Part shown: piece by piece, positions 605 to 30,744 of the stretch
How positions within the stretch are numbered: the stretch's first letter is position 1
Layout of the letters: every line of letters begins with the position of its first letter
Origin: an uncultured Bacilli bacterium
GTDB taxonomy: Bacteria > Bacillota_I > Bacilli_A > RF39 > UBA660
NCBI GenBank assembly: GCA_944358805.1
Contig: CALVSD010000003.1
Location: 1 to 36,254 of the forward strand
Reading direction: 5' to 3'
DNA length: 36,254 nucleotides
The notes under the pieces: generated by a model
The model's database searches: none
What the model was told of the DNA's origin: nothing
What the model saw: the letters and a program-made list of their open reading frames with translations, nothing else
Position numbers and translations under genes: made by a program

Positions 605-636
605 AAAGACTCTTAATCTCTTTTAAGCGAGTCTTT
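605..636 (-). terminator. Probable intrinsic terminator after the 653-1102 gene
   Basis: Inverted repeat AAAGACTC (605-612) / GAGTCTTT (629-636) just past the stop codon. Confidence 0.55.
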
Positions 637-652
637 AATTTATATATGTTAT

Positions 653-1102
653 TTATTTTTCTTTTATTCGTTTCACCAAATAAAAGGGTAGCATAGGAAA
701 TAATATAATACCAACAAATACCATACTACATATAAATAATATTTCAGAAGTTACATATAATTTTTGTTCCCTTTTAATCTCAGTTGGATTATTTTTATTA
801 ACATAAATTGAAATATTAGAATTTATACCAGTATAATATGCATAATCTTTAACCTTTATTATATAATCTTTTTTATAATTATATTTTAATTCTATCAAGA
901 TGTCTTTTGAATTACTAATTTCATAATTAACAACAACAGCATTTGTTTTATACCAATTTTTTTCTACCAACAAATCTTTTATATAAAAAAATATAGAAAA
1001 CAATCCAATAACCATGCTTATGATTGCTATAATTATCATTATTTTTTTTATTTGCTTTGAACTTCCATATTTTAACATTCTAAACATACTATAACCGCTC
1101 AT
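653..1102 (-). CDS. DUF3592-like membrane protein
   Basis: N-terminal TM helix, beta-rich middle (WYKTNAVVVNY...ISIYVNKNNP), C-terminal TM helix; RBS GAGGAG. Confidence 0.6.
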   Translation of the reverse strand: MSGYSMFRMLKYGSSKQIKKIMIIIAIISMVIGLFSIFFYIKDLLVEKNWYKTNAVVVNYEISNSKDILIELKYNYKKDYIIKVKDYAYYTGINSNISIYVNKNNPTEIKREQKLYVTSEILFICSMVFVGIILFPMLPFYLVKRIKEK

Positions 1103-1280
1103 AAAATCTTACTCCTCTATTTCAAGTTATTTTCTTATTAATTTAGAATCCTAAAAAATTCCCACTATCAATATCATTTTTACTTACAAATTAATTAATA
1201 ATTATTTACTATATTTACTTATAATATATCATATTTAATATTAGCTTTCAATTATAATAAGATAATTAATAAAAAAGAAG

Positions 1281-2585
1281 TTAATCTATTTTATTAATAA
1301 TATTAAGAATACTATTGATATCATTTATATTAACTTCTTTTTCACTAGATTCATTCATATTTTTTATCTTAATAATTTCAGTATTTATTTCTGTTTCTCC
1401 AATTACTGTTACAAATGGAACATTATTTTTATTTGCCCATTCAAAAGCTTTTTTTACTTTCTTATTATTCATTTCGATTATTACTTTAACACCGTTATCT
1501 CTTAACTTTTTAGCAAGTAATAATGATTCATATTTAGTATCCATTGGTATTATATATAAATCATAAACACTACTATTTTTCTTTTCTAAAGACATTATTT
1601 CATAAATTGGAACTAATCCAAAAGTCATACCTACGGCAGGATATACATTACCATCATCTATAAAATTGGTAATTATTTTATCATAACGACCACCTGCTCC
1701 TATACTAGAAGTAATTCTTTTTTGTCTATCAAATACTTCCCATATAGTGCCTGTATATATTTCAAGTCCTCTTGCTAAATATGGAGTAAATACACATTCA
1801 TTTAAATTGAATTTATTTATATATGTTTGTAACTCTTCTATTTCACTAATTCCTTCTTTTAATATTTCATTAGTACTATCTTTAAAATTATTTATAAGAG
1901 TATCTATATCTAATTTAAAGTAACTAAATAATTTATCTAATTTATCTTTATTAATATTTAGCTCTTCTAATTCTTTTATTACACCATCTTCTCCTATTTT
2001 AGCAAGTTTATCTACTGATAATATAACTCTAGATATATATTCTTCTTCAATGTTACATTCTTTAATTAATCCTGATAAAACTTTACGATTATTCCATTCT
2101 ATTTCAATATTTATACCTAAATCTTTATAGCATTTACTAGCCATTAATAACATTTCTATTTCTGGATATATTCCACTTATACCACATAAATCAACGTCAC
2201 ATTGATAAAATTCTCTGTTTCTTCCTAATTTAACAGGTCCATCTCTAAATACTTTACCTATTTCATATCTTCTAAAAGGTAAAGAAATTTCTTTATTAAC
2301 ATTAGCTGCAATTACTTTAGAAAAAGGCACAGTTAAATCATATCTAAGTCCTATATCCCTATTACCTTGATCTTTTAAAGTATATACTTCTTTTAATATT
2401 TCTGCTCCTCCTGCATATTTAGAAGCAAGTAAATCATAATTACATAATATAGAAGTTTCTAATGGTAAATAACCATATGCTTCAAAATTATTCTTTAATT
2501 TACTAATTATTTGATTTTTAACTATTTGTTCATTAGGTAAACTATCAAAAGTTCCTTTTATATTTTTAAGTATATTATTATTCAT
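1281..2585 (-). CDS. hisS: Histidine--tRNA ligase
   Basis: KGTFD, LRYDLTVPF, motif 2 FRDGPVKLGRNREFYQCDVD, LARGLEIYTG, GGRYD, C-terminal anticodon-binding domain. Confidence 0.97.
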   Translation of the reverse strand: MNNNILKNIKGTFDSLPNEQIVKNQIISKLKNNFEAYGYLPLETSILCNYDLLASKYAGGAEILKEVYTLKDQGNRDIGLRYDLTVPFSKVIAANVNKEISLPFRRYEIGKVFRDGPVKLGRNREFYQCDVDLCGISGIYPEIEMLLMASKCYKDLGINIEIEWNNRKVLSGLIKECNIEEEYISRVILSVDKLAKIGEDGVIKELEELNINKDKLDKLFSYFKLDIDTLINNFKDSTNEILKEGISEIEELQTYINKFNLNECVFTPYLARGLEIYTGTIWEVFDRQKRITSSIGAGGRYDKIITNFIDDGNVYPAVGMTFGLVPIYEIMSLEKKNSSVYDLYIIPMDTKYESLLLAKKLRDNGVKVIIEMNNKKVKKAFEWANKNNVPFVTVIGETEINTEIIKIKNMNESSEKEVNINDINSILNIINKID

Positions 2586-2587
2586 AG

Positions 2588-3094
2588 TTACACTTCCTTA
2601 ACACTTTCTATATCTAATATTTGATCTAATTTAGTTATAGTTATATATTTACTTTTCTTACCATTATCGGAAAATTTAACAGCAATTCCGCCATGTTTAT
2701 GCCATAAATCCAAATTTCCTAAGAAGTCATCAATTAATATTGCATCTTTAGGATTTACGATATCACATTTATTAATTTCTTTAGGGACTAATATTACTTC
2801 TAATTCTGGTACTCTAGACTTTAAATATCTTATTTTCCCTAAGCCCTCATTATAAGAAATAATATGAGTTAATACTTTTACTTCAAAAAGGTTACTTTTA
2901 ATTATCTTTTTAATACAATTAATACTATCATTAATTTCAGGTGTCTGCTTTATTATATGATCCCAATCTAAATTATAGTAAAAATCAAGTGCTTCCTCAT
3001 CTTTTGGACTTATATTTAATTTTTTTAACATAGGATAAGTTACTTTTATTGTATCTAAAATAACTCCATCAAAATCTATATATAATTTTTTCAT
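2588..3094 (-). CDS. HAD-superfamily phosphatase, 5'(3')-deoxyribonucleotidase (NT5C)-like
   Basis: Motif I YIDFDGVILDT, conserved K (NKC), motif IV LIDD, and W..HGG.A tail typical of NT5C-like proteins. Confidence 0.7.
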   Translation of the reverse strand: MKKLYIDFDGVILDTIKVTYPMLKKLNISPKDEEALDFYYNLDWDHIIKQTPEINDSINCIKKIIKSNLFEVKVLTHIISYNEGLGKIRYLKSRVPELEVILVPKEINKCDIVNPKDAILIDDFLGNLDLWHKHGGIAVKFSDNGKKSKYITITKLDQILDIESVKEV

Positions 3095-3100
3095 AATATC

Positions 3101-3637
3101 CTACTCTAAACCACTAACTATTTCATCTTCTGTTTCATAGTAACTAACTACTTCATTATTTACTATTTTAATTAAAGTATTATCTACTACTTTAAGATCT
3201 TCTAATGTTTTAGCAGATTTATTTCCAGAACCTTGAGTAACATAATTTTGATTTAAAGCATCTTTTGTATTTACCCTATATATTTTAGATTCAGATAATT
3301 TACTAGTTAATGTTGATTCAATAGTGCTATTCATATTTTCAAAATCATAAAAATATACATAATATTCTTCTTCTTTTTGATTAAATATAGAACTAGCAAG
3401 TATTTTATTATTAACTAAATCAGCAACTTCATTATCTTTATTACTAAACCAATCTATTTCTTTAGTAACAAAGACTCCTACTACTATATATAATACTACA
3501 AATATAATAAGTAATATAATTGTTATTTTAGCAAACTTATATATTTGATTATCATTATCTGTATTCATATCATATAATTCTTTTTTTAAATTCTTTCCTT
3601 CTTTTTTAGCTTGTTTTCTTTTTAACTCTCTTCCCAT
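3101..3637 (-). CDS. Hypothetical single-pass membrane protein
   Basis: Basic N-terminus, one TM helix, extracellular domain with YYVYFYD. Start moved to ATG 3637 (RBS GAGGTG); extended -10 TGCTATAAT at 3657-3665. Confidence 0.7.
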   Translation of the reverse strand: MGRELKRKQAKKEGKNLKKELYDMNTDNDNQIYKFAKITIILLIIFVVLYIVVGVFVTKEIDWFSNKDNEVADLVNNKILASSIFNQKEEEYYVYFYDFENMNSTIESTLTSKLSESKIYRVNTKDALNQNYVTQGSGNKSAKTLEDLKVVDNTLIKIVNNEVVSYYETEDEIVSGLE

Positions 3638-3686
3638 ATATATACACCTCATAGTAATTATAGCAAATATACGTTTTACAGTAAAG

Positions 3687-3712
3687 AAAAAAAAGCATTT
3701 TTATTATGCTTT
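3687..3712 (-). terminator. Intrinsic terminator of ydcC-like gene
   Basis: AAAGCAT/ATGCTTT stem (3692-3698, 3706-3712) followed by a U-run on the minus strand. Confidence 0.6.
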
Positions 3713-3729
3713 ATCATCAATATATATAA

Positions 3730-4872
3730 TTATTTTGATACAGGAAGGACACTTATACTTCTTGCTACTTCTAACAGTTCATCAGTGGATAATTTTTCAC
3801 TAACTACAAAGTATTCTACACCATTACTAAACCAATTTACAGAATTATCATTAACTACTCCTACAGTATCAGATAAATGTGTAAGTTCTCCGAAAGTTGG
3901 AATAATAAGATGTTCTTCTTCATAAGACACAGTTTCTTCTATTAGTGTAAACGGACTATCTCCACTAAAAGTTAATATAAGTCTTTGACCATCATCAGTA
4001 TTTATTGTTTCTTGACTTTGTAAATACGTATTAGTAGGTAAATACATCGGATATATTATATCTTCAATTGTTGCAGTATTCTCTGTTGTTGAATTATTTT
4101 CAGTAGTTTCATTTTCGCTATTATTTGTTTGTTCTTTATTATCTTCATTTTCATTTGTATTTGTATTTTCGTTGGTATTAGTATTTTTATTAGTATTTTC
4201 GTTAGAGTTTGCGTTTGTATTAGTATTTGTGCTGCTATCTTCATTTCTATTCTCTTCCTTAATTAATTCATTTAACTTAAAATAATTATCATCAAACTCA
4301 GATTTTAAATCTATCTTATTAAATACCATCTTTATTTGAGTATTATCACTTTCATCTACTACTATTACTTCTTTTACTTCATAATTCTTATCTAATTTAA
4401 TTTTTTGATTAACTAGTTTTTTATTATTTGGATAATTCACTTTTGAAGTAAGAGTATATCCATCATCAGTTTCTTCAACTTTTTTATTTTCATCATTACT
4501 TAAGTCTTCCACTAATGAACCTAATAAATATACTTGTGAATTGTTGTGTGGCCAATCACTTTGAAATTTAAAACTTTTATTTAAAGATGGTGTTACAACA
4601 TAAACTCCATCACTATTTCTAAGTATCACTTGTTTATGATTATTAGAAATATTAGTAAGTTCTACTTTATAATTATTATCTTTTTGATAAGATACTTTAA
4701 CATCGTAAGTATAAGTATCTTCATTATTAATTATATCCATAGAACCTTCAACATAATAACTACTTGCTTTTTCTATTTTTTTAGAAAATTCTTCACTAGC
4801 ATCTTTCTTTCTAATACTACATCCTGTTATTAATAAAGAACCTAATATTAGAAATAAAAATATTTTTTTCAT
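3730..4872 (-). CDS. ydcC: Sporulation lipoprotein YdcC/SsdC-like (LolA-fold plus C-terminal DUF4367-like domain)
   Basis: Lipobox LITGC; QVILRNSDGVYVVTPSLNKSFKFQSDWPHNNSQVYL closely resembles B. subtilis YdcC as recalled; C-terminal W..NGVEY...LS.DELLEVARS. Confidence 0.85.
   Translation of the reverse strand: MKKIFLFLILGSLLITGCSIRKKDASEEFSKKIEKASSYYVEGSMDIINNEDTYTYDVKVSYQKDNNYKVELTNISNNHKQVILRNSDGVYVVTPSLNKSFKFQSDWPHNNSQVYLLGSLVEDLSNDENKKVEETDDGYTLTSKVNYPNNKKLVNQKIKLDKNYEVKEVIVVDESDNTQIKMVFNKIDLKSEFDDNYFKLNELIKEENRNEDSSTNTNTNANSNENTNKNTNTNENTNTNENEDNKEQTNNSENETTENNSTTENTATIEDIIYPMYLPTNTYLQSQETINTDDGQRLILTFSGDSPFTLIEETVSYEEEHLIIPTFGELTHLSDTVGVVNDNSVNWFSNGVEYFVVSEKLSTDELLEVARSISVLPVSK
4075..4260 (-). 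repeat. Low-complexity Asn/Thr/Glu linker with imperfect short repeats inside ydcC
   Basis: STNTNTNANSNENTNKNTNTNENTNTNENEDN; DNA units such as gtattttcgtt and gtattagtattt recur. Confidence 0.7.
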
Positions 4873-27421: not shown

Positions 27422-29893
27422 TTAATTTATAGATACTTTGTATGGATCTTCTTCTGTTCCAGTGCCTGAAGAATAAAGAACATCAGACGACAGATTGACA
27501 ACGGGACGAAGTCCTAAAGAAGTAGATAGATAAAGTCCATTAGGCGCAAGTCCTGCAAAGGCAACCCTAGGAACAATATCATTTGAAAAGCTATAAGGTG
27601 ACATTGTCCAAAAACTTTTATCTATGTGCAAATAATACTTATAATTATTTGTTCTAATTTTACCGCCTGCCAATATTGTTTCATCCAAAGTTATAAGAGC
27701 TACAGGATAATCCAAATTTCCATTTCCTAAACTGTTGTTTACTGTAAAACTATCATTCTTATTTTGACATATTAATGATGGATTTTTTTTAGAATCATTT
27801 CTAAAATCAGCTCCATATATGTTATTACCCATGTCAAAGTTATAACCATTACCACTAGTTATCGTTCTATCATTACAAAATATTTCATCACTTAAATAAT
27901 TGGATAATAAATTACCTTGGGAATCTTTTTTATTCAATATATTTTTTTCATACCAATAATCCACTTCATATTTAGCGTTACTATCTAATAAGTTTGAAGT
28001 GGAGCTTTCATAACTCGAGGAAAACAAACCATGTTGTCTTCTAACCGATCCCGTTGTAGAAATAGATGTTCCTACCTTTGTTACCCCTAACATTTCTGTT
28101 ACAATGGGACAATTTACAATTAAATTATTATCTTCTGTCCTTATAGTTGTATTGTTTAAACATGCATACTTATAATCACCAGTGTACTTATACATAGTTG
28201 AAGTAGATCCAATTCCATTAACATCATAGTTATTAGGATCAGTTGCTAAACTTTCCCACATACTATAAATGCAATTATCTCCTACTCCTGTACTACTATC
28301 ATAATTATTACAAGTCATTGTACACGTTTCATCTTCTAAACTACAATTACTATTTAAGTTAAATGAATTAAAAAAATAATATTTAGTTGGATTGGTATAA
28401 GAATATTGAAATTTATTTAAATTATTAACCGAATCTAAACTTACAGAAGGCGTTGTAACTAAATTCATTTCAGAATTGTACATATAACCTACATGAGCAG
28501 AAGCAAAATTATATGGAGTATTTGTTTTTTGCGACACTGCCGTATATAGCGATGAATAACTTCCTTTTGAATTTTTTATCGTTGCATATTTTCCTGTGTG
28601 CGACGCTCCTTCTTCTGCAGAACCTGAATATATCATTCTAATACTACCATTTCCGTTTATTCTTACTATTCTCCATAAACTACCAGCATATTCTACCCAA
28701 TTGTTTTCAACATCTCCCCTGTAGAAATAAGTAAAATTACTATCTATTTCTCCATCATTATTGGTATCTTTACTATAATCATCTACTGTTTTAAACAAAC
28801 CAGTTCTAACTGAGGTACCCCCTATATTTTTATTTGAATATTTATATCCCTTATTAAATTCATATCTATCATTTGCATATCTATATTCATACATTAGATA
28901 TAAAAATTCACAATTACCATTACTTGTGGTATTTAAACAAGTATACTTATATTTACCATTTTTTATATCTTCTTCTGTAGTTATTATATCTTCTATTCCC
29001 CCAGTTTTGGCATTTTTAAAAGTATATGTATATGTAGTATTATTAAAAGATATATTTTGAGGAGAGCCATTCTCACTATTATAAATTACACTTGATTCTT
29101 CTACATAAGTAAATGTTGTATTTGTAGTAGTAGCCATACTACTATTAGAATTAATATCATATTTATATTCAGTTATTAATGGTTCATAATAGTTGGTTGG
29201 TTCTACAGTATCTAAATTAGTTAAATCCAACTTACTAGTCTTACTATCAATATTTAAAAGTGCTGTATCATAATCAGTGTATGAATCACTTCTAATTAAG
29301 CATTCACTAAAACTTGTTATATTATTATATTTACAATAATTAGAATATATTGTTGTTATTTCTGTTGCTTCTGCTCTTACTTTGGTTGATAAAGTTTCTC
29401 CTTCTATATTTTGATTTATATCCATAGATTCATCTAACCATATGTATATTTTAAATAATTGCTTTTCTACTCTAAGCGGTATATTAATTTTTAAACTTAC
29501 TGTATCACCTGTTTTTTGTCCTACAAAATCTCCAAAATTTAATAGTTCACCCTCTGATGTTATTGCCCATTTTAATGCAGGTTCATTTGCTAAATTAGTT
29601 CCAATTGTGGTTATATCTAAATATATATGACCATATATATTCATTGTTTCTGCAATTGGAGATTTCCATAATTCTATTTCTGTTGAAATACCTCCTGTAT
29701 AATCTGTACTAGGCAAAAGTGTTCCTGTTAGTACATCTGTTCCTTTATTATAGTTAATATAAGCATCAAGTCCATTTAAACTTAGTGCTACATCTATATC
29801 TTGATTAGATTTACTATTCCATACAAAGAACGCTAACGTAGATGATATTACTAATATAAATAATATTGCGGTTAATATAATTGTCTTTTTCAT
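27422..29893 (-). CDS. Large secreted Cys-rich surface protein (SipW-type signal peptide; C-terminal DUF6273/C-type-lectin-like region)
   Basis: Signal MKKTIILTAILFILVISSTLAFF; YFYRG.VENNWV...WRIVRINGNGSIRMIY; FWTMSP...GLRPVVNL...GTGTEEDPY; RBS AAAGGAG. Domain names are from pattern recall, not from a search. Confidence 0.7.
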   Translation of the reverse strand: MKKTIILTAILFILVISSTLAFFVWNSKSNQDIDVALSLNGLDAYINYNKGTDVLTGTLLPSTDYTGGISTEIELWKSPIAETMNIYGHIYLDITTIGTNLANEPALKWAITSEGELLNFGDFVGQKTGDTVSLKINIPLRVEKQLFKIYIWLDESMDINQNIEGETLSTKVRAEATEITTIYSNYCKYNNITSFSECLIRSDSYTDYDTALLNIDSKTSKLDLTNLDTVEPTNYYEPLITEYKYDINSNSSMATTTNTTFTYVEESSVIYNSENGSPQNISFNNTTYTYTFKNAKTGGIEDIITTEEDIKNGKYKYTCLNTTSNGNCEFLYLMYEYRYANDRYEFNKGYKYSNKNIGGTSVRTGLFKTVDDYSKDTNNDGEIDSNFTYFYRGDVENNWVEYAGSLWRIVRINGNGSIRMIYSGSAEEGASHTGKYATIKNSKGSYSSLYTAVSQKTNTPYNFASAHVGYMYNSEMNLVTTPSVSLDSVNNLNKFQYSYTNPTKYYFFNSFNLNSNCSLEDETCTMTCNNYDSSTGVGDNCIYSMWESLATDPNNYDVNGIGSTSTMYKYTGDYKYACLNNTTIRTEDNNLIVNCPIVTEMLGVTKVGTSISTTGSVRRQHGLFSSSYESSTSNLLDSNAKYEVDYWYEKNILNKKDSQGNLLSNYLSDEIFCNDRTITSGNGYNFDMGNNIYGADFRNDSKKNPSLICQNKNDSFTVNNSLGNGNLDYPVALITLDETILAGGKIRTNNYKYYLHIDKSFWTMSPYSFSNDIVPRVAFAGLAPNGLYLSTSLGLRPVVNLSSDVLYSSGTGTEEDPYKVSIN

Positions 29894-29919
29894 TCTATTT
29901 CTACTCCTTTATTTTACAC

Positions 29920-29971
29920 AAAAAAACTATAGTAAAACTTTCTAGTCTCCTAGAATTCTACTATAGTTTTT
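29920..29971 (-). terminator. Premature intrinsic terminator (attenuator) in the leader of the secreted protein gene
   Basis: Minus strand AAAAACTATAGTAGAA-TTCTAG-GAGA-CTAGAA-AG-TTTTACTATAGTTTTTTT: long stem, GNRA tetraloop, U7 tail; ends 26 nt before the ATG at 29893. Confidence 0.85.
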
Positions 29972-30060
29972 AATTTATATTTAACATTTGTTAACAAATA
30001 AGTAAGTTTATACCCCCCCCCTAATTTACAAATAGTTAATTTCTCTTTGTTTATTTTCAT
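29950..30060 (-). CDS. Leader peptide, 36 aa (MKINKEKLTICKLGGGYKLTYLLTNVKYKLKTIVEF), containing a G9 tract
   Basis: Not in ORF track. Consensus RBS AGGAGGT upstream of ATG 30060; TAG stop (29952-29950) lies in the terminator stem next to the loop. Confidence 0.75.
   Translation of the reverse strand: MKINKEKLTICKLGGGYKLTYLLTNVKYKLKTIVEF
30013..30021 (-). repeat. Homopolymeric G9 tract (C9 on + strand), candidate slipped-strand phase-variation site
   Basis: Nine consecutive C at 30013-30021; the only G/C run of this length I found in the AT-rich window; read as GGG GGG GGG although Gly is mostly GGA/GGT elsewhere. Confidence 0.85.
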
Positions 30061-30117
30061 GCTTTATTACCTCCTACTTGTAAATTAGTTAAGGATTTAC
30101 TTACTATCTACATCTAT

Positions 30118-30146
30118 AATATATCATAAATTTTAATAGTTAGCAA
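30118..30146 (-). promoter_or_regulatory. sigA-type promoter for the leader and secreted protein transcript
   Basis: TTGCTA (30146-30141), 17-nt spacer ending in TGA, TATATT (30123-30118); just downstream of the efp terminator. Confidence 0.65.
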
Positions 30147-30156
30147 TAAATTATAC

Positions 30157-30188
30157 AAAAAAAACAGTTTCAAAAATTCAAAACTGTT
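30157..30188 (-). terminator. Intrinsic terminator of rpmG-efp
   Basis: AACAGTTT/AAACTGTT stem (30163-30170, 30181-30188) followed by a U-run. Confidence 0.75.
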
Positions 30189-30744
30189 ATTTTCTAGATA
30201 CATATTTACCATCTTTTGTAGATACAATTATTTCTTCTCCTTGTTCTATAAATAATGGTACTCTAACTGTCATTCCAGTTTCTAATGTTGCATCTTTTGT
30301 TGCATTAGTAGCAGTGTTTCCTTTTACTGCAGGTTCTGTTTCTGTAATAACATAATCTACTTTTTCAGGAAGTTCTATTCCTAATAATTCACTTTCAAAG
30401 AAAATTATTATAACTTCTAATCCTTCTTTTAAGAATTTTGCTTCATTTTCTATTTGCTTGATGTCAACATCTATTTGCTCATAAGTTTCCATATTCATGA
30501 AACTATAACTGTCTCCAGTTGAATATAAGAATTGCATTTTTGTTTTACTTATATGAGCAGTAGGAACTTTAATACCTGAATTAAATGTTTGTTCTACAAT
30601 TGAACCAGTTCTTAAGTTTTTTAACTTAGTTTTTACTATTGCAGCACCTTTACCTGGTTTTACATGTTGGAATTCTAATACTTGATAAAGATTTCCTTCA
30701 TACATGATGGTTACGCCTACTTTAAAATCATTTACGTTAATCAT
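30187..30744 (-). CDS. efp: Translation elongation factor P
   Basis: FQHVKPGKGAA, FMNMETYEQ, EPAVKGNTA, ATLETG, VPLFI. Confidence 0.98.
   Translation of the reverse strand: MINVNDFKVGVTIMYEGNLYQVLEFQHVKPGKGAAIVKTKLKNLRTGSIVEQTFNSGIKVPTAHISKTKMQFLYSTGDSYSFMNMETYEQIDVDIKQIENEAKFLKEGLEVIIIFFESELLGIELPEKVDYVITETEPAVKGNTATNATKDATLETGMTVRVPLFIEQGEEIIVSTKDGKYVSRK

Follow-up and report, generated by a model that had tools for sequence, protein, structure and literature searches.

The locus described here raises the question of how a short run of G residues, lying inside a small open reading frame (ORF) just ahead of a predicted transcription terminator, could govern the expression of the large gene that follows. 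It is found in a 36,254-nt stretch of DNA from an uncultured Bacilli bacterium (contig CALVSD010000003.1 of GenBank assembly GCA_944358805.1), the whole of which is called the window below. A compact cassette of about 180 nt, made up of a promoter, a leader ORF carrying nine consecutive G's (the G9 tract) and a long terminator hairpin, precedes the gene of an 823-residue protein, P0001. We propose that this cassette is probably a phase-variable leader-peptide transcription attenuator of the kind known from the pil1 operon of Streptococcus gallolyticus, with a homopolymer as its repeat. All window features are read on the minus strand, and their coordinates, which are forward-strand positions of the stretch, are collected in Table 1.

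The three frames of the leader and the terminator

An earlier note on this DNA had described a sigA promoter, an AGGAGG ribosome-binding site (RBS), a 36-codon ORF with G9 at codons 14-16, a hairpin followed by U7, and the RBS and ATG of a large gene, and all of these are present at the positions that it gave. It had also claimed that the length of the tract decides where translation of the leader ends, and re-reading the sequence with altered tracts in silico reproduced this. With G9 or G12 the leader stops at a TAG adjoining the loop of the terminator hairpin. With G10 it is a 17-residue peptide that ends at GTA-TAA, 44 nt before the hairpin, and with G8 it is a 22-residue peptide; the stop used by G8 and G11 is 27 nt before the hairpin. 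The hairpin has a folding energy of -22.4 kcal/mol as against -8.5 kcal/mol for the terminator of the upstream gene, efp, and the leader as a whole folds with a z-score of -4.59 relative to shuffled sequences. The -35 and -10 elements of the cassette promoter are conserved across paralogous and orthologous cassettes, and the efp terminator appears from its sequence to shield the cassette against transcription from upstream. Between the U run and the ATG of P0001 there are only 26 nt, too few for a promoter, and the consensus scan lists no promoter-like site between the hairpin and this ATG. Downstream, P0001 is followed by a terminator-like hairpin of its own and then by a TG-extended TATAAT promoter of the next gene (promoter-like site 27389-27360) and, therefore, the switch would control one gene only.

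Rarity of the tract and paralogous copies in the genome

The source genome has 1,313,652 bases in 111 contigs, a GC content of 25.4% and a completeness of 95%. Runs of G or C of length 6 occur 25 times in it and those of length 7 twice; there is none of length 8, one of length 9 and one of length 10. The two runs of eight or more both belong to paralogous cassettes, namely, the G9 of the window and a G10 on contig C39, while simple arithmetic gives about 0.02 runs of nine or more expected by chance in the genome. These run counts rule out a chance origin of the G tract. The C39 cassette is 92% identical to that of the window over 299 nt and precedes a gene for an 828-residue paralogue that is 79% identical to P0001. 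By frame logic, the window gene would be ON and its C39 paralogue OFF. A third paralogue is on contig C74 (4931 bases), which ends at residue 38 of the protein, as is expected of an assembler at a shared repeat; the identity of the C39 and C74 paralogues to P0001 is 78-79%. Short-read contigs end in or next to cassettes in C74 and also in the genomes G141, G217 and G114, and several matches to G8 followed by TATAA are less than 100 bases from contig ends. Since contigs end at cassettes, the number of cassettes per genome is undercounted.

Conservation of the frame logic within the genus

Further copies were sought by a DNA search of 61 genomes and by scanning metagenome contigs for the pattern with tracts of G6 to G16. 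Full-length copies in the 61 genomes were confined to the genus of the window, with five in G001, four in G002 and two in G004, and the metagenome scan yielded 13 more, which lie on 11 contigs of two assemblies. Another pattern scan, of genome contigs and up to G9, returned 23 stretches that were mostly chance matches in unrelated taxa, the relevant ones (L032, L035, L037 and L050) being known copies from G004, G001 and G002. The earlier note had suggested a look for other poly-G leader cassettes before surface-protein genes; the scan of the source genome gave the C39 cassette and the searches of the genus gave many more. In all, 23 distinct cassettes of the genus have an uninterrupted tract, which is G10 in 17 of them, G9 in three, G11 in two and G12 in one. 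There are also two copies with interrupted tracts (G5TG4 and GGGAGGGG, the second of which comes with a 1-nt deletion) and two decayed copies in which the tract is lost. Locked or decayed cassettes are found at L029 (G001:C53), L025/L037 (G002:C28), L030 (G002:C24) and L005 (G005:C28); at L005 the terminator is retained and is followed by a new TG-extended -10 element. A strain represented by the metagenome contig L061 (about 1155-2887), which is 97% identical to the window over 621-3879, has one more G10 cassette, inserted between the sites that correspond to window positions 444 and 621 and followed only by a 72-residue P0001-like fragment.

The relation between frame and terminator that the earlier note had put forward is kept in these copies, as judged from the fixed distance between ATG and tract, the conserved stops in the two wrong frames, the indels that preserve the frame, and the other genera described below. 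Of the 24 genus copies checked, 23 have exactly 39 nt between ATG and tract, although the first eight codons of the leader vary; the interrupted L025/L037 copy has 38 nt. A Shine-Dalgarno-like element was found in all 21 aligned cassettes. The tract is followed by TATAA in 20 of these 21 (L035 has GATAA) and GTTAAC is invariant, and these two motifs hold the TAA codons at which the short frames end, 27-48 nt ahead of the hairpin across the genus. The third frame is open up to a TAG at the hairpin apex, where it stops 14 or 22 nt inside the hairpin. One subgroup has 27 or 30 nt between GTTAAC and the hairpin; in the subgroup of the window this spacer is 1 nt shorter, and this offset brings the other TAG of a palindromic CTAG-loop-CTAG apex into frame. 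Such spacer indels together with the use of the apex TAG are what one would expect if the frame is translated and the place where it ends matters. In L035 and L083 an extra G arose through a T>G substitution and the long frame is read at G10, in L019 the stop logic is kept after a 2-nt deletion, and L089 has a lead of 34 nt so that its long frame is 3n+1. Thus, the rule in the earlier note that tracts of 3n are ON holds for the window copy but, because of L089, the two T>G copies and L019, it is not universal.

In 17 of the 21 cassettes that could be measured the gene begins 20-27 nt after the U run with no promoter in between; in the other four this distance is 65-87 nt. The 65-87-nt gap in L017/L059 and L035 (G001 and relatives) holds TTGACA..TATAAT-like elements, which might bypass the switch.

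The same arrangement in other genera

A covariance model built from 21 cassettes was searched against 151 genomes of the family and gave weak matches in three further genera. Their leaders and hairpins are unrelated in sequence to those of the window genus, and the arrangement is the same: an RBS, an ATG, an ORF of 42, 66 (or 60), 30 or 34 nt, the G run and TATAA. The long frame ends 2-9 nt from the hairpin apex or, in G062, passes through the terminator, and the remaining two frames stop 16-66 nt before the hairpin. Among seven copies fetched from G141 three have G9, three have G10 and one has a G10 that arose by substitution; an eighth copy has G10. By mononucleotide shuffling, the chance of a long frame this open is 0.09 for the window, 0.07-0.11 for G141, 0.05 for G161 and 0.006 for G062. 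The frame logic recurs in four genera including that of the window, and this recurrence supports the leader attenuator.

Predicted RNA structures

The RNA structures were predicted from an RNAalifold consensus of the 21 cassettes and from a single-sequence fold of the window leader. The consensus consists of a stem that we call P1, a small hairpin and the terminator. P1, which did not figure in the account of the leader in the earlier note, is a predicted stem of 16-17 bp in which CUAAUUUACAA(A/G)U(G/A)G, just 5' of the RBS, pairs with leader codons 9-13. The helix continues into the tract, whose leading G's pair with a C/U-rich stretch, AUCCUU in the window. The fold of the window leader that includes P1 has an energy of -21.8 kcal/mol. 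In the P1 helix 97.6% of the alignment cells are paired and all changes are compatible with pairing. All 21 cassettes retain the terminator structure; its two helices have 100% and 99.2% of their cells paired and include one compensatory pair. For both stems overall the value is 98.9% compared to 42-52% when the partner is slid. P1 is conserved and, as a model, plausible. The predictions for G141 and G161 also include a stem ending at the tract, in which CCCUC between the RBS and the AUG takes part in G141 and which is a local hairpin in G161; that for G062 has none. No competing antiterminator hairpin is present in the RNAalifold consensus and the leader has no codon runs other than GGG.

Variation in tract length

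If the tract is a switch its length is expected to differ between close relatives. The cassettes with flanks of 93% identity or more include four orthologous pairs that are not duplicates. Two of the four, both with 94% flank identity, differ by one G. One of these is the efp-adjacent locus itself, which has G9 in the window and G10 in L056, and the other is L017 (G9) against L059 (G10). Reads were looked at as contigs from 24 sequencing runs of chicken-gut or other gut metagenomes, and the DNA runs X1, X2 and X5 and the RNA run X15 were compared; what they gave is weighed below.

Proposed mechanism

From these findings the following sequence of events can be proposed. A constitutive promoter of the sigma-70 type would give a transcript with a short, well-initiated leader ORF. 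Runs of eight or more G's are known to slip, and slipped-strand mispairing at replication would add or remove a G in codons 14-16 and so change the leader frame in a heritable and reversible way. In the G9 (3n) state the ribosome would cross the 5' arm of the hairpin and stop at the TAG beside the loop, the hairpin would be blocked, and P0001 would be transcribed (ON). With G10 it would stop at GTA-TAA, and with G8 or G11 in GTTAAC, that is, 27-44 nt before the hairpin, and the terminator would form (OFF). Slipped-strand switching, translation of the leader and ribosome-mediated anti-termination are what we infer from the conserved arrangement. The hairpin 1:2 of the trp leader synchronises the ribosome with the polymerase, and P1 could be a pause hairpin that lets the first ribosome reach the polymerase, which is the step with the least support; that P1 acts in this way, or as a stimulator of transcriptional slippage, is a conjecture. 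Cassettes in front of many paralogous surface genes, mostly assembled in the OFF state, would have the look of a contingency-gene repertoire. Rho-dependent polarity is unlikely as the OFF mechanism because the RNA-binding domain of Rho was not found in this genome, which at 95% completeness leaves its absence unproven.

Several observations weigh against this proposal. Covariation in the stems is not significant, with one two-sided pair change and shuffled alignments reaching the scores in 118-277 of 500 cases, and because of this the structures rest on conservation, pair-compatible changes and folding energy. A form with an extra G has a depth of 30 out of 60.2 in X2 (four contigs), 22.7 out of 61.8 in X5 (two contigs) and 0 out of 38.5 in X1, but it may be the G10 paralogue: the extra-G contigs are inseparable from C39 because the flanks of that paralogue are identical and the contigs end within 6 nt of the tract. 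The RNA run X15 covers only 30275-30724, which is in efp. OFF lengths are found in 19 of the 23 genus cassettes and in 13 of 13 in the two metagenome assemblies, a majority that fits a repertoire of variable surface proteins; the same would be seen if G10 were the functional state. Coupling of ribosome and polymerase as tight as is assumed here is, reportedly from work on Bacillus subtilis, not assured in Bacillota. Finally, MutS is present in the genome, so slippage may be slower than in phase-varying bacteria that are deficient in repair. Missing mismatch repair was also considered as the cause of tract instability and was rejected, since MutS is present.

Promoter-spacer G tracts in the family

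The motif G8 followed by TATAA is present in 46 of 401 genomes of the family, belonging to 36 of 214 genera, while the reversed control pattern gave four hits in total. There are up to 34 copies per genome (G238), with 30 in G114 and 13 in G248. Thirty loci, one per genome, were sampled (L084-L113). Six are of the leader type, 19 are promoter-spacer switches, and five are unclear or at contig ends. The promoter-spacer loci have the form TTGACA-N7..10-G8..12-TATAAT with spacers mostly of 19 nt, as in L097, L103, L108, L110 and L111, and they precede surface-protein and pilin-like genes. The shared G(n)-TATAA suggests that the leader-type and promoter-type designs are related. A third arrangement was seen at L088 (G248:C2, minus strand, about 1499), where G9-TATAAAA-CCCTC-T8 is followed by GTGTAAAGGAGTAGA and an ATG. 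In this case the G's could supply the 5' side of a short hairpin resembling a terminator, and the sequence 3' of the U run resembles the window sequence 3' of its terminator.

The window tract was considered as a promoter-spacer switch and this was rejected: the best -35 is TTGTAA (4 of 6 positions) with a 13-nt spacer and the scan lists no promoter there.

Alternative explanations

A wider reading would make the cassette a portable promoter-leader-terminator unit, a "contingency leader" that has spread before a repertoire of surface genes in a lineage of gut Bacilli with reduced genomes, having probably arisen from the promoter-spacer G(n)-TATAAT switches common in the family, with the tract-ending stem making the G run both a DNA switch and a pause or slippage site that sets how leaky each allele is. 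We put this forward as a tentative and rather doubtful extension.

Of the readings that compete with the attenuator, the one that survives best is still improbable. It holds that the tract acts mainly at the level of RNA, by slippage of the polymerase or by frameshifting at the GGG codons, and a fixed genotype, typically G10, would then give in-frame leaders in a set proportion and graded read-through that is not inherited. Hairpin-stimulated transcriptional slippage is a described phenomenon, and P1, directly behind the G run, has the geometry known to stimulate slippage of RNA polymerase. Two further observations favour this reading: the folds predicted for the window genus, G141 and G161 each have a stem whose end lies within the opening G's of the tract, and G10 is the commonest length of the tract, being found in 17 of 23 genus cassettes. 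However, the tract varies in the DNA itself, from G9 to G12 among paralogues and orthologues, G062 has no tract-ending stem, and what P1 has in its support is conservation. Moreover, slippage at the RNA level would add to a DNA switch and does not exclude it.

We give little credence to the idea that the leader ORF is not the sensor at all. On this view the effect of the tract and the sequence around it would come from a bound protein or from the structure of the RNA or DNA, for instance from G:C/U pairing that alters how the leader folds, or the tract would be left over from a promoter-spacer switch. G(n)-TATAA is indeed what the cassette has in common with the 19 promoter-spacer loci of the 30 sampled, and the C/U-rich partner of the tract is conserved. 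For the window copy, the poor -35 match with its short spacer and the silence of the promoter scan speak against it, and a transcript from such a promoter would reach the terminator after 45 nt. It also leaves unexplained why the ATG distance is fixed, why two frames have conserved stops and the third is long and open, and why the indels preserve the frame.

It is very unlikely that the short peptide is itself the product, for instance, the 17-residue M..KLT(V/I)CKLGGGV made from G10, with the tract causing phase variation of this peptide and the hairpin serving as its terminator. The segment KLT(V/I)CKLGGG is conserved within the genus, but at the nucleotide level it coincides with the 3' arm of P1, and the leader peptides of the other genera are unrelated to it in sequence. 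In addition, this would leave a strong RBS and a large gene 20-27 nt behind the U run without a promoter in 17 of 21 cassettes. It is hardly credible that the tract arose by chance or through an error of sequencing or assembly: homopolymers are error-prone, and breaks at or close to the tract occur in the assembly as well as in the Logan contigs, but independent metagenome-assembled genomes, two further metagenome assemblies and, in all, four genera have the same tract in the same conserved context, and the number expected by chance is the small one given above.

The genes behind the cassettes

The proteins encoded behind all cassettes share an N-terminal hydrophobic signal and a C-terminal end of the form ...RPV.YLKS.V.ITGG.G....PY.L., and the C-terminal modules of P0001 are common to proteins behind other cassettes. 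P0001 itself has no match in Pfam, NCBIfam or the PDB. Some other cassette-driven proteins have Flg_new_2 and SpaA_4 domains, with DUF6273 below threshold. More than 1290 homologues were found for the last 444 residues of P0001, and a few among them have DUF6273, Peptidase_M73 or a pilin-type N_methyl N-terminus. The Atlas look-alikes are Bacillota clusters in which Peptidase_M73 is found in 11% and DUF6273 in 14% of the members, and these are to be taken as leads only. From their sequences the cassette-driven proteins appear to be uncharacterised secreted or surface proteins of a multigene family. Their N-termini end in (S/Q)T(Y/L)A(M/L/F)F, which we take to resemble signals of the SipW/TasA type. 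A gene for an archaeal-type (SipW-like) signal peptidase was found at G000 C99:884-1357, with a score of 91 bits against a cut-off of 51.85.

Features of the window

The coordinates of the cassette and of its neighbours are given in Table 1. Immediately 3' of P0001 there is a 483-residue polytopic membrane protein, P0002 (25888-27339, minus strand), which has its own promoter and no match in Pfam, NCBIfam or the PDB. At 1181-1256 (minus strand), upstream of a 149-residue ORF (653-1102), a stretch is 77% identical to the promoter and the 5' part of the cassette (TTGAAAGC..TATGATATATT) and has no leader ORF, G tract or terminator. No Rfam 15 family matched anywhere in the window at the gathering score.

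Table 1. Features of the poly-G leader cassette and its surroundings in the 36,254-nt window
Feature	Position	Strand	Remarks
efp (elongation factor P), upstream neighbour	30187..30744	-	Pfam EFP_N, EFP and Elong-fact-P_C matches; context only
efp intrinsic terminator	30155..30186	-	AACAGTTTTGAATTTTTGAAACTG then U8
Cassette promoter	30118..30146	-	TTGCTA 30146-30141, 17-nt spacer, TG-extended TATATT 30123-30118; from consensus scan
Predicted stem P1, 5' arm	30074..30096	-	CUAAUUUACAAGUAG and C/U-rich AUCCUU; adjoins leader RBS
Leader RBS	30070..30075	-	AGGAGG, 9 nt before leader ATG (at 30060)
Leader ORF	29950..30060	-	36 codons and TAG in the G9 state; translation MKINKEKLTICKLGGGYKLTYLLTNVKYKLKTIVEF*
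Predicted stem P1, 3' arm	30022..30035	-	CUAUUUGUAAAUUA; leader codons 9-13; abuts tract
G9 tract, proposed slipped-strand switch	30013..30021	-	leader codons 14-16
TAA stop for 3n+1 tracts (G10)	30008..30010	-	part of the TATAA directly after the tract
TAA stop for 3n+2 tracts (G8, G11)	29991..29993	-	within GTTAAC
Predicted intrinsic terminator	29920..29971	-	long hairpin at 29971-29922; U7 at 29926-29920
In-frame leader TAG	29952-29950	-	beside loop of terminator hairpin
RBS of controlled gene	29904..29909	-	AAGGAG; read from sequence
Controlled gene, P0001	27422..29893	-	823 residues; ATG at 29893; N-terminal hydrophobic signal/anchor
Terminator-like hairpin and U run 3' of P0001	27377..27408	-	read from sequence

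Comparison with known systems

In the attenuators of trp, his and leu the position of the ribosome on a leader peptide decides whether a terminator forms. The cassette is like these in having a leader peptide, a terminator that would be set by the position of the ribosome and, possibly, a synchronising pause hairpin. Unlike trp and his, it is without regulatory codons or a predicted antiterminator, and its input would be the genotype and not the level of charged tRNA.

Homopolymers that act as promoter spacers are classic, as in the poly-C of Bordetella fim, the poly-A of Mycoplasma hyorhinis vlp, and Neisseria opc/porA. The promoter-spacer switches of the same family resemble the cassette in that they have a G run as the switch, TATAA directly after the tract, and surface-protein genes as targets. 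The difference is that in a promoter-spacer switch the tract sets the spacing between -35 and -10, whereas the promoter of the cassette is about 100 nt upstream and unaffected, its tract would be translated, and the output would be read-through of the terminator.

Tracts of G within genes have been described for the pilus genes of Bifidobacterium breve (PMC9187656) and for the contingency genes of Campylobacter jejuni (PMC11955535). In the parts of these papers that were consulted, as in the cassette, a tract of G8-G10 sets the reading frame by its length and surface structures of gut bacteria are turned ON or OFF. There, however, the tract is inside the target gene and the OFF state truncates the protein, whereas the target ORF of the cassette remains intact and the read-out would be through the leader and the terminator.

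The closest precedent is pil1, and the statement in the earlier note that its repeat number shifts a leader stop relative to a terminator agrees with the consulted part of the published account (Danne et al. 2014, PMC3894217). According to that part, short leaders that end 39 bp before the terminator give low expression, and leaders that end within or after the terminator block the hairpin and give high expression. As in the window cassette, the repeat is in a leader ORF before a stem-loop terminator and its number sets the leader stop. The OFF stops are at comparable places, 39 bp before the hairpin in pil1 and 27-48 nt in the cassette, and both are ON with a stop in the hairpin. In both the target is a surface structure and the majority of cells or copies are OFF. 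There are differences also: the repeat is a G homopolymer in the cassette and GCAGA x22 in pil1, and the cassette would be ON in one of three frames whereas pil1 is ON in two of three, as its model was understood from that source. The cassette, unlike pil1, is present in many copies before a multigene family, with at least two in the window genome, five in G001 and eight seen in G141, in four genera in all. It also has an additional conserved predicted stem that ends at the tract. Its host is an uncultured chicken-gut member of the Bacilli with a reduced genome.

The literature searched, which took in few subscription journals and no supplements, held the pil1 paper and the intragenic G tracts of B. 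breve and C. jejuni, and nowhere described a leader peptide that contains a homopolymer and is coupled to a terminator; as far as that literature goes the combination of slipped-strand variation with leader attenuation had been described only for the GCAGA repeats of pil1. The leader cassettes and the promoter-spacer G tracts, the latter found in 46 of 401 genomes, mark the family as rich in contingency loci. If the proposal is correct, the cassette gives uncultured gut Bacilli with small genomes a concrete mechanism of surface variation, in which it has been multiplied to govern a family of surface proteins and each coding sequence stays intact. The principle of pil1 would then not be a one-off, and it would work with the simplest possible repeat and be maintained across at least four genera.

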